A DNA stretch of 64,000 bases from a virus, in the IMG/VR virus record IMGVR_UViG_3300045988_107203, positions 15,075-79,074 of that record; one strand, 5' to 3'. A program made the translations under genes and the position numbers. Position 1 is the first letter of the stretch. Every line of letters begins with the position of its first letter. The notes under the pieces were generated by a model that saw only the letters and a list, made by a program, of their open reading frames with translations, was not told where the DNA came from and did not search any database. Shown here piece by piece: positions 14,984 to 41,565 of the stretch.

Positions 14984-15238
14984 ATGAACGAGGATATTTT
15001 AAGCAATATGTTTGGGTGTGATACATATTGCATATGTGACAGTTCTTCAAATAGGTACTGTTTTATTGGGCCTATTGAATGTAACGGGAAGTTAATAGAA
15101 GAGTTTAGGAAGGGAATAATAGTAAAATTGAAATATGTGGAAAAGAGGGTTCTGGATACATTCAAAGAAAATGGGGTTGATCTGGATAACTATACCCACT
15201 GTGTTATAGTAAAGCGGAATTTTTATCTCGCATGGTGA
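14984..15238 (+). CDS. hypothetical Cys-rich protein (84 aa)
   Basis: tiled ORF. Confidence 0.45.
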   Translation: MNEDILSNMFGCDTYCICDSSSNRYCFIGPIECNGKLIEEFRKGIIVKLKYVEKRVLDTFKENGVDLDNYTHCVIVKRNFYLAW

Positions 15239-20497: not shown

Positions 20498-20518
20498 ATA
20501 ATATATTTTCACGAGATC

Positions 20519-20734
20519 ATGACCGACAGAGAGTTTCTTGAAGAAAACAATAAAATGCTAAAGGAAATTCTAAGTTTTGTGAGAAAAGTTGATTCTGTTG
20601 AATACAGGGATCATCAAGACTTTATGGAATTTCTGAGAAATGTGGCAGCCGATATATGGGTGGAATATACGGAGCCTAAACAAAGAAGTAAGTTATTTAA
20701 TTTAATGAATAAAAAAAATGAAAACAGTTTTTGA
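20519..20734 (+). CDS. hypothetical protein (71 aa)
   Basis: tiled ORF. Confidence 0.45.
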   Translation: MTDREFLEENNKMLKEILSFVRKVDSVEYRDHQDFMEFLRNVAADIWVEYTEPKQRSKLFNLMNKKNENSF

Positions 20735-20903
20735 TTTAAGCAGAGATGAGATTGTGGCATTGACAGACGAAGAGATAAGTCTGTATATAGACAAAGAGCT
20801 TGTTGGTAAGGGTATTCCAATTGAAGCTAAAAACTGGAATATAAAGAACAAAAAAGAAGTCGTGTATCCAAGAACTGGAGTTCCAGTATTTATGATTATT
20901 TAA
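20718..20903 (+). CDS. hypothetical protein (61 aa)
   Basis: tiled ORF. Confidence 0.4.
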   Translation: MKTVFDLSRDEIVALTDEEISLYIDKELVGKGIPIEAKNWNIKNKKEVVYPRTGVPVFMII

Positions 20904-20929
20904 CCAACAAAACCACCATACTTTAGAAG

Positions 20930-22235
20930 ATGGATGAATTGGTTTGATTAATTTTGAATCAAAATTACAGATAAAAAAATGATTTCATACAAATACAACA
21001 TCTATCATTCCAAGAAAACGAAGTATCTCGACAAAATGCTTCGAGAATGTTGTTTTGTATGGAATCATGCTTTAGCTCTACAACGTAGATACTACAAACT
21101 GTTTGGAAAATATATCTCAGTTAGTAAAATGAAAAAGCATTTTGCAAAAAGGATAAAAAGAAATCTTCTTCATTCCCAAACAGTGCAAGAAATACTTGAA
21201 CGTCTTGATGAATCTTATAATCGTTTCTTCAAGAAATTGGCTAAACGACCTCCTAAGTTTAAATCACCGGAGAAATTCAATTCTTTTGTATTCAAACAAG
21301 GTGGGTTTACCCTGAATGGTAATTGTTTAACAATTAACAAAGGGAAGAAACGATTTAGATTTTCATACAGTAGAGTCTACGAAGGTAATGTTAAACAAAT
21401 TAGAATAGTTAGAGAAACCTGTTCACGTTTTAGTTTGATTATAGTTACAGATCATAATCTAACAAACTCTTATAGAAAGACACATGATGGTGCATCTATC
21501 GGATTGGATTTTGGCCTGAAAACTTATCTAACTAAAAGTGATGGGAACAAAATTGATTCTCCATTATTCTTTAAACAATATCAAAACAAGATTAGAAAAC
21601 TAAACAAACGGCTTTCTAATGCAAAGAAAGGATCCAACAATAGAAGAAGGAGACTGTTTGAACTACAACAAGCGTATCGTAAAATAAACGATCTTCGATC
21701 GGATTTTCAATGGGGATTAGCTCATGATTTGTGTAAACAATATGATTATATTTTTATTGAAGATCTAAACATTGAAGGAATGAAACGTTTGTGGGGAAAG
21801 AAAGTTTCTGATCTCAGTCATTCTTCTTTTATTGATAAACTAATGTATGTTGCCTCAAAGTATGGAGTGATAGTACACAAGATTGACAAATGGTATCCTT
21901 CTTCCAAAACTTGTGAATGTGGCTGCATTAATAAAGGACTGTCGTTACGCGACCGCACGTGGGTATGCCCGGCGTGCGGTCGCGTAACGACCGTGACATT
22001 CTTGCAGCCCGTAATATACTTCGGAAGGGCATTTCCGAATTGGAGAGCAAGAGTAATTCCAGCGATATTAATATCGGGGTTTCTTGCGTTTGTATCCAAG
22101 AATCCCATTTGCTTTAGCGATGGGAGTGTGTCATCTAATAATGAGATGATGATGATGGACGTTTTGCAGTGGTGTTCTGAAAGATTTAAAAATAGTATAG
22201 AGAAAGGAAAGAAATCAACTAATTAAATATTAATA
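20930..22235 (+). mobile_element. IS200/IS605-family (IS1341-like) element carrying tnpB only
   Basis: TnpB ORF; candidate left-end hairpin TTGATTAATTTTGAATCAA at 20944-20962; palindrome CGATATTAATATCG at 22058-22071 near 3' end where an omegaRNA would lie; no Y1 tnpA seen. Confidence 0.6.
20979..22117 (+). pseudogene. tnpB: TnpB (RNA-guided RuvC-like nuclease), near full length but frameshifted between zinc finger and RuvC-III
   Basis: RuvC-I IGLDFGLKTY, RuvC-II FIEDLNIEGM, ZnF CECGC...CPACGR in track frame; RuvC-III NDRDILAARNILRKG only in the -1 frame (MPGVRSRNDRD...LL* ending 22117); track ORF tail 22000-22226 is not TnpB-like. Confidence 0.8.
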
Positions 22236-22237
22236 CA

Positions 22238-22708
22238 ATGAATCGCTGGTTTGAAATTACGGTAAAAGCCGAGATTGATAATATCGAGAACGGCAAAAAA
22301 AAGAAAGTAACTGAAAAGTATTTGGTGGATGCCTTGTCTTATACAGAGGCAGAATCAAGATCGTTGGAGATCTTTAAGGATTTGTACAATTCTTTCGAGG
22401 TTGTAAAAATTAACCCTATTAAAGTGTCAGAAATCTTTTTCAACGGAGAAGCTGAGTACTGGTATAAGTGCAAGGTGAATTACATTACACTGGATGAAAA
22501 GAAAGGTAAAGAAAAGAAAACGCCATGCTATATGTATGTCCAAGCCGGCAATCCTAAAGACGCCGAAGCTGTGTTGACTAAAGGTATGCAGGGTACGTTG
22601 GGAGACTGGAATTGCGAGTCTATTGCTGAAACAAAGATCATTGAAGTGTTTAAATACGATCTGCAAAAAGGTGTAGAAAAATTGGGAGAAAAGAAAACTG
22701 ATGAGTGA
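22238..22708 (+). CDS. DUF4494-like protein (156 aa)
   Basis: MNRWFEITVKAEI...KYLVDALSYTEAESRS...YWYKCKVNYITLDE matches recalled Bacteroidota DUF4494 pattern. Confidence 0.55.
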   Translation: MNRWFEITVKAEIDNIENGKKKKVTEKYLVDALSYTEAESRSLEIFKDLYNSFEVVKINPIKVSEIFFNGEAEYWYKCKVNYITLDEKKGKEKKTPCYMYVQAGNPKDAEAVLTKGMQGTLGDWNCESIAETKIIEVFKYDLQKGVEKLGEKKTDE

Positions 22709-22931
22709 TGTTGTTTCCCGTGTAGCACTTGCGACGGCAATTGTATTATTGGTAGTAGCAGGTGCTACTTTGTTGATAGTGATTAAGACCGAAGAAGTAC
22801 CGAGATGGTTAATGAACTTACCATATACGTTATCTTTAACGGCAGTATCCTTTTCAATTATATCACTTGTATTGAAATATAGAGAGTGGAAAAGAAATTG
22901 TACGTCTGCGAAAGATGCGGACGAAAAGTGA
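22701..22931 (+). CDS. small membrane protein (2 TM, 76 aa)
   Basis: two hydrophobic helices. Confidence 0.5.
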   Translation: MSDVVSRVALATAIVLLVVAGATLLIVIKTEEVPRWLMNLPYTLSLTAVSFSIISLVLKYREWKRNCTSAKDADEK

Positions 22932-34915: not shown

Positions 34916-35235
34916 AAGAAGATCTAATATGTGGAGTAGCGATCCTTTTGTATTTAGTTTTATTATACTTGCTCACGACAACTTTCATAAAAACATGTAG
35001 AGCAGTAGATCGTTATAAGATGAAGAAGAAAACTGACAAAATCAAAGTAGGTCAAAGATACGAACATAAGAACTACTTTGAGGATCCATTTGAAAGAGGC
35101 AAGCATGTGATTAAGATATTAGACATAAAAGAAGGGTACGCTCTATATGAGTACGAAGAAAAACTATATATACGTTCTTCTGTGAGTCTTGAAGATATTG
35201 TTAAAAAATATATTTTAATTACTGATATAGAATAA
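34912..35235 (+). CDS. small membrane-anchored protein (107 aa)
   Basis: N-terminal TM helix. Confidence 0.5.
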   Translation: MKEDLICGVAILLYLVLLYLLTTTFIKTCRAVDRYKMKKKTDKIKVGQRYEHKNYFEDPFERGKHVIKILDIKEGYALYEYEEKLYIRSSVSLEDIVKKYILITDIE

Positions 35236-35241
35236 GGGGTT

Positions 35242-35628
35242 ATGGAAAAGAAAGTCACAATCAAAGAAGGGATGGGTATTTTTTACAAAAATGCAGGAAA
35301 AGGTATATGGGTCTATATTGGACTTTTTGGAAATAAAGTGCTATCCATTTTAAAAAACAAAGGTGTTATTGCATGCGAAAACGATGCTGAATATTGCGTG
35401 TTGATGGATGGAGAAGATCATTTTATAAGTATAGCAAAAGACATGAGTCACGACTATTGTTGTGAGTACGTTGTAGAAAGAGCAGAAGCCTACAGAGACT
35501 ACCCATCCAAAGGTGCTACATGCAGTGTATGCCTGTTTGAAGATAATGAGAATAAAGCAAGGGAGATGTTGAAAGAGGCGATAATAGAACTTTCAAAAAA
35601 TAATATAATAGATTGTGATGGGCTTTGA
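35242..35628 (+). CDS. hypothetical Cys-rich protein (128 aa)
   Basis: tiled ORF. Confidence 0.5.
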   Translation: MEKKVTIKEGMGIFYKNAGKGIWVYIGLFGNKVLSILKNKGVIACENDAEYCVLMDGEDHFISIAKDMSHDYCCEYVVERAEAYRDYPSKGATCSVCLFEDNENKAREMLKEAIIELSKNNIIDCDGL

Positions 35629-41121: not shown

Positions 41122-41565
41122 TTACACCAGTACATTTTGACGCTTCACCGTTCCTACCAACGTAGGCAACTCCACGTCCCCTTCCCGGTTCACCACCGGT
41201 GTCTTGTTAATATTTTCTTGGGTTAGAAGATTCTGTTTTTCTAACCCAAATCTTTTAATGTTATTCGCTGCAAGTAAATCACGATCATTGACGGCGCCAC
41301 ATTCAGGACAAGTCCAAATACGATCCGATAATTTAAGATCACGATGAATATACCCACATCCGCACATCTTAGAACTTGGCTCGAATCTTCCGATCCGAAT
41401 TAAATTAACACCGCGCCAATCTGATTTATATTGCAGCATCCTAAAGAACTCGCTCCATGATGCAGAAGCAATTCTCTTAGCAAGGCAATGATTTTTTTAA
41501 CATGCCTCCTACATTAAGATCTTCGATGATAATAGTTTGGTTCTCACTTATATTCCTCTTAGAAT
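41122..41565 (-). pseudogene. tnpB: TnpB C-terminal remnant (RuvC-II, zinc finger, RuvC-III) with homopolymer frameshift
   Basis: ORF 41122-41439 has ...RFEPSSKMCGCG...CPECGAVNDRDLLAANNI; upstream in a different frame IEDLNVGGM (RuvC-II, 41501-41527) and KNHCLAKRIASASWSEF; frames joined across T7 run at 41492-41498 (6 or 9 would be in frame); no N-terminal half. Confidence 0.75.

Follow-up and report, generated by a model that had tools for sequence, protein, structure and literature searches.

How did a transposon nuclease gene carried by a phage come to be divided between two reading frames, and could its product still work? These questions are raised by a tnpB gene of the IS200/IS605 insertion sequence (IS) family in the IMG/VR virus record IMGVR_UViG_3300045988_107203, of which positions 15,075 to 79,074 were analysed; this whole stretch of 64,000 nt is called the window, and coordinates below are window positions unless another sequence is named. 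With a probability of roughly 80%, we read the frameshift as the result of one quasi-palindrome template switch in a tnpB-only IS200/IS605 copy, which would be nuclease-dead while keeping an apparently intact omegaRNA scaffold.

The window is ~94% identical, in blocks, to csAssE-Sib (L084), a 151-kb human-gut phage, and the stretch around tnpB is identical to ENA ERZ28663571 scaffold_46 (L085; sample SAMEA3664934), a contig of 148,836 bp. Judged by sequence, the carrier is a csAssE-Sib-like human-gut phage of about 149 kb. A literature search on csAssE returned nothing relevant.

The tnpB gene and its two frames

The annotated open reading frame (ORF) at 20979..22226 on the plus strand encodes 415 amino acids (aa). 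It joins or overlaps the following parts:
20979..21983, plus strand: tnpB codons 1-335 in frame 0, with HTH, WED/REC, RuvC-I D177, RuvC-II E261 and a CxxC...CxxC zinc finger, ending in ...CPACGR
21986..22117, plus strand: tnpB codons 337-379 and a TAG stop in the -1 frame, reading NDRDILAARNILRKG..., with the RuvC-III catalytic Asp at 21995-21997
22135..22226, plus strand: phage-gene remnant, the last ~30 codons of a homologue of WOZ57362.1 (86 aa), by chance in frame 0 and forming the tail of the 415-aa ORF

The first-pass annotation of this locus had described an IS200/IS605-family TnpB inside a phage, with its hallmarks in one frame up to CPACGR, RuvC-III encoded only in the -1 frame ending at 22117, and an annotated frame running on into non-TnpB sequence, and each of these points is borne out. 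Profiles from Pfam and NCBIfam match the 415-aa ORF, including OrfB_IS605 (3.5e-18), HTH_OrfB_IS605 and Cas12f1-like_TNB (8e-13, profile positions 1-49/60 only). The -1 frame, read from 21959, gives MGMPGVRSRNDRDILAARNILRKG...LL* with its stop at 22117, and its core, ...RSRNDRDILAARNILRKG..., contains the RuvC-III sequence NDRDILAARNI. Joining frame 0 through CPACGR (codon 335, 21981-21983), one restored codon and the -1 frame from AAC 21986 yields a product of 379 aa, which scores 69.3 bits against Cas12f1-like_TNB over the full profile (1-60/60), compared with 48.8 bits for the annotated protein. Against NCBIfam NF040570 guided_TnpB (cut-off 100 bits), the restored protein reaches 247 bits (1-389/389) and the annotated one 223 bits (1-375/389).

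Structures of ISDra2 TnpB (8bf8/8ex9/8h1j) align with the restored protein over residues 11-352. In this alignment, D177 (21507-21509) and E261 (21759-21761), both in frame 0, are the first two RuvC residues, and D340 (21995-21997), encoded in the -1 frame only, corresponds to ISDra2 D361. The window gene and ISDra2 TnpB have the same domain order, a D-E-D triad once the frame is restored, a CxxC...CxxC zinc finger and a 3'-overlapping omegaRNA that ends at the right end; they differ in that the window copy is frameshifted and its RuvC-III Asp lies out of frame. No single polypeptide of the window allele therefore carries the complete RuvC D-E-D triad.

By homology the gene belongs to the TnpB family by descent, and its product lacks the triad; we accordingly class this tnpB copy as a pseudogene. 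With the RuvC-III Asp out of frame and a junk C-terminus in its place, the 415-aa product should be nuclease-dead. It consists of TnpB residues 1-335, 50 out-of-frame codons across the omegaRNA region and a foreign tail from the phage-gene remnant at 22135-22226. As such a chimera, it should be annotated as a pseudogene and left out of sets of TnpB variants, such as those compiled for nuclease mining.

The hairpin at the frameshift

The lesion lies in an inverted repeat that the first-pass annotation had missed:
21938-21959 and 21973-21994, plus strand: inverted repeat with 22-nt arms, 19 bp perfect, and a 13-nt loop; it straddles the frameshift and occurs in imperfect form in relatives
21981..21985, plus strand: converted tract CGCGT, in place of the relatives' 6-nt GCNRTN (codons Ala-Val/Ile), net change -1 nt
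21930-22000, within this region: window allele GGTCGCGTAACGAC; non-mutant type GGTGCGATCAACGAC-like; string specific to the window allele CGTGCGGTCGCGTAACGACCGTGA

An inactivating indel had been proposed near 21978-21985, with a comparison of orthologs as the way to find it. That comparison puts the lesion at 21980-21985, so the place stands and an inactivating change is the supported alternative; the change is not a plain indel, however, but a replacement of six nucleotides by five of the kind left by a template switch. At this site, close relatives all read GTGCGG-N-GCN-RTN-AACGACCGTGA, which encodes Cys-Gly-Ala-Val/Ile-Asn-Asp-Arg-Asp with three freely variable third positions, whereas the window has GTGCGG-T-CGCGT-AACGACCGTGA. 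In a four-way alignment, the window is short by exactly one base at GGTCGCGT-AACGAC.

Read in reverse complement, the new tract CGCGT matches ACGCG (21947-21951) of the opposite arm exactly. In relatives, two stems of 6 and 7-8 bp (GTCGTT/AACGAC and ACCGCACG/CGTGCGGT) flank an internal loop of 5 x 6 nt, in which ACGCG stands opposite GCNRTN. The repeat is G+C-rich amid an A+T-rich gene, and folded as single-stranded DNA (ssDNA) it reaches -29.9 kcal/mol in the window (z -8.1), compared with -18 to -21 kcal/mol in relatives. The closest copies differ from the window at ~4% of positions, in scattered patches, and the window has only four private positions in the whole 1245-nt element (versus 77 relatives), three of them at 21980-21984.

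The frameshift is private to the window copy. A search of IMG/VR found 322 relatives of the element, and detailed comparison covered the best 80 of these. In each of the 80, tblastn aligns residues 1-379 as one match without a break, or slightly fewer residues where the contig ends or a small in-frame deletion intervenes. Among the 73 copies that were translated, 68 have a clean 379-aa ORF, four have premature stops and one (L076) has an in-frame deletion of 12 nt. At 90% identity, the protein cluster counts 927 members; of the 15 listed, 12 have a length of 379 aa. Annotated intact members (WOZ57285.1 and WP_288877906.1) and the IMG/VR copies L004-L083 have 78-97% protein identity to the window and share its omegaRNA and right end; unlike the window, they have a continuous frame and an imperfect hairpin.

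A multi-base change that is limited to the mismatch of a quasi-palindrome, makes its arms perfect and alters the length by -1 is the signature of a template switch. Quasi-palindrome template-switch mutagenesis is an established mechanism in E. coli and yeast reporter systems (PMC7202029), and what it leads one to expect is found here: an imperfect ancestral repeat in the relatives, and a multi-base tract that is confined to the mismatched part and complementary to the other arm. During DNA synthesis, the nascent strand would have folded back and copied the opposite arm, exchanging GCNRTN for CGCGT, perfecting the hairpin and losing one base. Frame 0 would then stay open across the omegaRNA region, past the right end and on into the in-frame phage-gene remnant, giving the 415-aa chimera. 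The reporter mutations share with this case the imperfect repeat, the clustered change that perfects the arms and the frameshift as a by-product; the window differs as a natural, phage-borne transposon gene. On this reading, the locus would be a clean natural case of quasi-palindrome template switching that inactivates a transposon nuclease.

The 12-nt deletion in L076 (IMGVR_UViG_3300039314_000054), ACCGCACGTGGG, removes Asp-Arg-Thr-Trp at the equivalent of window 21952-21963, in the 5' arm of the quasi-palindrome. It is an independent second rearrangement here, and suggests a fragile site.

Two other origins were ruled out. The hairpin is not an inserted mobile element, as canonical TnpB residues are encoded in either arm (LSLRDRTW / CG..NDR) and can be aligned to homologues. 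Homopolymer slippage from A3 to A2 (GTAAAC to GTAAC) is not the whole cause, as the adjoining bases also became CGC.

Several observations weigh against a template switch in the living phage. An exact search of IMG/VR and Joint Genome Institute (JGI) metagenome contigs found the mutant allele nowhere else, and the same search found no second instance of the window-specific right-end junction, so no independent sample shows the allele to be inherited. ENA and Logan assemblies both contain an identical 415-aa ORF, although these contigs may stem from the same reads. The nearest relative is still ~4% different, and the sequence of the immediate ancestor is thus a reconstruction.

These points bear most directly on an artefact in vitro, in which template switching during library preparation, polymerase chain reaction (PCR) or other amplification, or an error at the inverted repeat, altered the sequence of a real phage with an intact 379-aa tnpB. 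Inverted repeats are trouble spots for polymerases, and the ORF occurs in only two or three contigs, possibly all from one sample, with the allele absent from the IMG/VR and JGI metagenome contigs. A switch in vitro would nevertheless alter only a small share of the molecules and should be outvoted in a deep metagenome assembly, two assembly pipelines yield the same ORF, and the other private or lineage-specific lesions (position 20930 and a 720-nt deletion, both described below) fit a real, decaying copy. We regard such an artefact as improbable. A simple miscall, the sequencing error that the first-pass annotation had offered as an alternative, is unlikely: the lesion replaces six bases by five complementary ones, and the ENA and Logan assemblies carry the same ORF.

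Ordinary mutations could also have accumulated stepwise, as a one-base deletion with two or three substitutions whose complementarity arose by chance. Three third-codon positions of the tract vary freely among relatives, and a pseudogene is free to drift. Elsewhere in the 1245-nt element there is only one private change, however, so drift since inactivation has been minimal; two of the changes (R to C and T to G) fall at positions that never vary in this way among the 77 relatives; and a 5-mer would match a given complement by chance in ~1 of 1024 cases. A stepwise origin is very improbable.

Could the broken gene still work? TldR proteins are nuclease-dead, TnpB-derived repressors that are conserved as clades and associated with cargo genes, for example fliC or oppF (PMC10705468). 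Like them, the window allele is TnpB-derived and phage-borne, lacks RuvC-III and keeps a guide RNA, and a role as a nuclease-dead DNA binder would be drawn by analogy with these proteins; a split nuclease could instead include a 50-aa -1-frame peptide from ATG 21965. The intact omegaRNA scaffold and the presence of GTG 21959 and ATG 21965 in the -1 frame favour such ideas. The window allele differs from TldR, however, in being a singleton without conservation in a clade, in lacking any associated cargo gene and in having a junk C-terminus, in which 51 out-of-frame residues and 30 foreign residues replace the TnpB sequence, and the internal start is buried in the very stable hairpin (-29.9 kcal/mol as ssDNA). 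Retained function of either kind is thus scarcely probable. A broader version is a long shot in much the same degree: the allele could be a TldR-like repressor at its birth, acting on TTAT + CTAATAATGAG...-like sites, or a two-piece nuclease, and the family could home by RNA guidance between co-infecting ~150-kb gut phages, often replacing the DNA between TTAT sites (720, 487 and 195 nt).

Recoding, the other alternative raised by the first-pass annotation, would restore full-length TnpB, either by programmed -1 ribosomal frameshifting or by slippage during transcription. Frameshifting by -1 is known from other IS families, and there is a strong RNA hairpin at the site, but we reject this hardly credible reading on the lack of a slippery site (no in-frame X XXY YYZ heptamer in 21930-21995 and no homopolymer run of at least 5 in 21900-22000), on the position of the hairpin (a stimulatory structure follows its slip site, but here the shift would be needed within the 3' arm itself, at 21981-21986) and on the single continuous frame of 80/80 relatives; the -1 frame is open only from 21935, and a shift at the weakly slippery C CCG GCG (21968) would destroy the fourth zinc-finger cysteine.

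Element borders, target and omegaRNA

The anatomy of the element is as follows:
20894-22134, plus strand: whole element, tnpB-only IS200/IS605 with IS1341-type organisation
20890..20893, plus strand: TTAT target and putative transposon-adjacent motif (TAM), directly 5' of the left end; TTAT precedes every copy
20894..20978, plus strand: left end, 85 nt, with CCACC/GATGG (20913-20917 / 20929-20933) and the TTGATT/AATCAA hairpin (20944-20962)
22008..22134, plus strand: omegaRNA scaffold core, 127 nt with five helices, ending at the right end ...GTGTCAT (relatives ...TGTCAA)
22020-27/22032-39; 22040-44/22095-99; 22047-52/22082-87; 22059-67/22072-79; 22103-12/22117-25, plus strand: omegaRNA helices
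22135..22154, plus strand: predicted guide CTAATAATGAGATGATGATG, the first ~16-20 nt of the right flank, its length being an estimate

Between copies whose flanks are unrelated, similarity reaches 89-93 nt upstream of the ATG on the left and ends at ...GAGTRTGTCA(A) on the right. Two empty sites were found: the site filled in L012 is empty at window 34987-35278 (minus strand), reading TTTTAT|GTCTAATATC, and the one filled in the copies L004-L006 is empty at position 1877 of csAssE-Sib (L084). Both read TTAT|G... and show no target duplication, which sets the borders at G 20894 and 22134, with insertion after TTAT and without duplication. As judged from these insertion sites, TTAT is the putative TAM. 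The corresponding target of ISDra2 is TTGAT, and both elements insert 3' of a short target.

At the last right-end position (22134) most copies have A; the window shares a T with three other lineages, and one more has C (L013, L017, L038, L052). The T in the window could equally be the final T of a second TTAT site, that is, of a junction shifted by one base.

Putative subterminal stems comprise CCACC/GGTGG and TTGATT/AATCAA at the left end, and those at the right end coincide with omegaRNA helices. The left-end hairpin reported at 20944-20962 is present there as TTGATT/AATCAA. Position 20930 is an A private to the window (G in 53/53 relatives with the window-type left end), and it breaks the CCACC/GGTGG stem.

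About a third of the near-identical copies have a different A+T-rich upstream end (90 nt before the tnpB ATG) in three related variants (L013, L023, L030-L032, L037, L042, L044, L045, L051, L055, L056, L060, L063, L068-L078). Each variant occurs with several right flanks, and left ends thus appear to be exchanged between elements.

That no tnpA is present was also noted at first pass, and tblastn with the TnpA of MT839900 (L002) found none in the window, nor within 3 kb of any of the 80 relatives. A tnpB-only layout is the known IS1341-type arrangement, and the element would be mobilised in trans. The element of MT839900 (75% identical) does carry tnpA, and is the only relative with an adjoining one. 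Its own tnpB (826-1966) is broken elsewhere, with a 285-aa ORF to 1683 and the remainder continuing from ~1643 in a different frame; as the record carries the flag UNVERIFIED, this break may be a sequencing error.

An omegaRNA had been expected at about 22000-22235, to be checked with covariance models. Covariation supports a scaffold at 22008-22134, which overlaps the last ~110 nt of tnpB, and the element ends at 22134, ~100 nt sooner than proposed. Across 21 diverse sequences, 98.7% of cells are paired and 22 of the 34 pairs show compensatory changes; 0/500 shuffles equal the real value, and partners slid by 1-3 columns pair at no more than 53%. The covariance model built from this family alignment (R1) scores 152.7 bits at 22008-22134 and finds no second copy in the window. 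A scan of 20500-22800 with Rfam, at E values up to 10, returned no omegaRNA family and only chance miRNA-like matches on the hairpin. The palindrome noted at first pass, CGATATTAATATCG, exists, but at 22063-22076 rather than 22058-22071 (5 nt off), and it is omegaRNA helix 4, in which 6/7 pairs covary.

The scaffold looks unaffected by the lesion, in that a single-sequence fold of the window predicts the same omegaRNA stems independently of the upstream hairpin. The frameshift hairpin might also be an omegaRNA helix; its pairs hardly vary among close family members, and distant ones contribute only 1-2 compensatory changes. The module that stands alone in Parabacteroides phage PF672P1 and MT835674 lies downstream of this hairpin. 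These orphan omegaRNA/right-end modules without tnpB upstream (L087:1596-1713 in PF672P1; L088:450-570 and L088:1596-1716 in MT835674, two copies in one 24-kb contig) score 112 bits with R1 and may be solo guide-RNA genes or remnants. RNAalifold pairs TGACA (21883-21887), ~250 nt upstream, with the right-end TGTCA (22129-22133); both are invariant, so covariation is silent, and the pairing might close a longer omegaRNA as a long-range helix.

For TnpB of the IS200/IS605 family, it is an established rule that the right-end flank is the guide. In intact copies, by analogy with characterised systems, the 379-aa RNA-guided nuclease and its omegaRNA would recognise TTAT and the right-flank sequence, and cutting of IS-free alleles would favour keeping or copying the element. 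TnpB-omegaRNA complexes are described as recognising a TAM and the right flank, cutting IS-free alleles and favouring retention or copying of the element (for example, PMC10278001, PMC10705468). At most, the window omegaRNA could work with a TnpB provided in trans.

The family and its adjacent deletions

The best 80 relatives have 89-97% protein identity and lie mostly on contigs of 60-157 kb, at times with two copies per contig. DNA identity of the element to the copies in csAssE-Sib, MT839900 and Parabacteroides phage PF672P2 is 64-76%. Searched with the restored protein, 185,579 species genomes gave one distant match (58%), in a Candidatus Cryptobacteroides metagenome-assembled genome. This TnpB family thus appears abundant in ~150-kb csAssE-Sib-related human-gut phages, almost confined to phage contigs and nearly absent from bacterial reference genomes. 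Intact members were already annotated publicly, as WOZ57285.1 (csAssE-Sib, 379 aa) and WP_288877906.1 ('RNA-guided endonuclease InsQ/TnpB family protein'); the window copy is ordinary in kind, and nothing here alters existing knowledge of TnpB. What is new is the proposed mutational mechanism, the borders, TTAT target and covariation-supported omegaRNA of a gut-phage TnpB family, and the recurrence of adjacent deletions.

The window tnpB has a truncated hypothetical gene and a DUF4494 gene as neighbours, and on its left lies this gene:
20718..20903, plus strand: truncated phage gene, the first 59 codons of a homologue of csAssE-Sib WOZ57363.1 (222 aa), with its last codons and stop supplied by the left end

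The resulting 61-aa ORF is identical to WOZ57363.1 up to ...TGVPVFM, after which the two diverge. On the right, the remnant within the 415-aa ORF reads SNNEMMMMDVLQWCSERFKNSIEKGKKSTN* in the window, and its csAssE-Sib counterpart SNNNMMMMDVLQWCSARLQTEIEKGKKSTN*. The left flank at 20519-20894 matches L084 1501-1877 at 95%, the right flank from ~22135 matches L084 from ~2606, and 720 nt of csAssE-Sib (L084 1878-~2605) are missing from the window beside the right end. The closest copies, L004-L006, have the same left junction as the window, yet in them the 222-aa gene continues after the right end. Since they keep this phage DNA, the deletion is secondary; with the mismatch in the left-end stem, it marks further decay of the window copy.

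In three independent cases, an element stands between sites that are not adjacent in an IS-free genome, with 487, 195 and 720 nt missing (window 4063 / 4551; window 50962 / 50766, minus strand; and window 20893 / 22135 versus L084 1877 / ~2606, respectively). Both sites end in TTAT in all three, and the right end is joined to the base just after the second TTAT. About six insertion sites could be mapped, and only two are simple insertions. The pattern hints that these elements repeatedly delete adjoining phage DNA; it is compatible with adjacent deletion by intramolecular strand transfer of the TnpA type, or with recombination of two direct copies.

A C-terminal fragment of another TnpB lies elsewhere in the window (41122-41439, minus strand), with no N-terminal part upstream and no match to model R1 there. 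This 105-aa ORF is 46% identical to residues 273-354, covers guided_TnpB positions 325-388/389 and retains CGCG...CPECG and NDRDLLAANNI.

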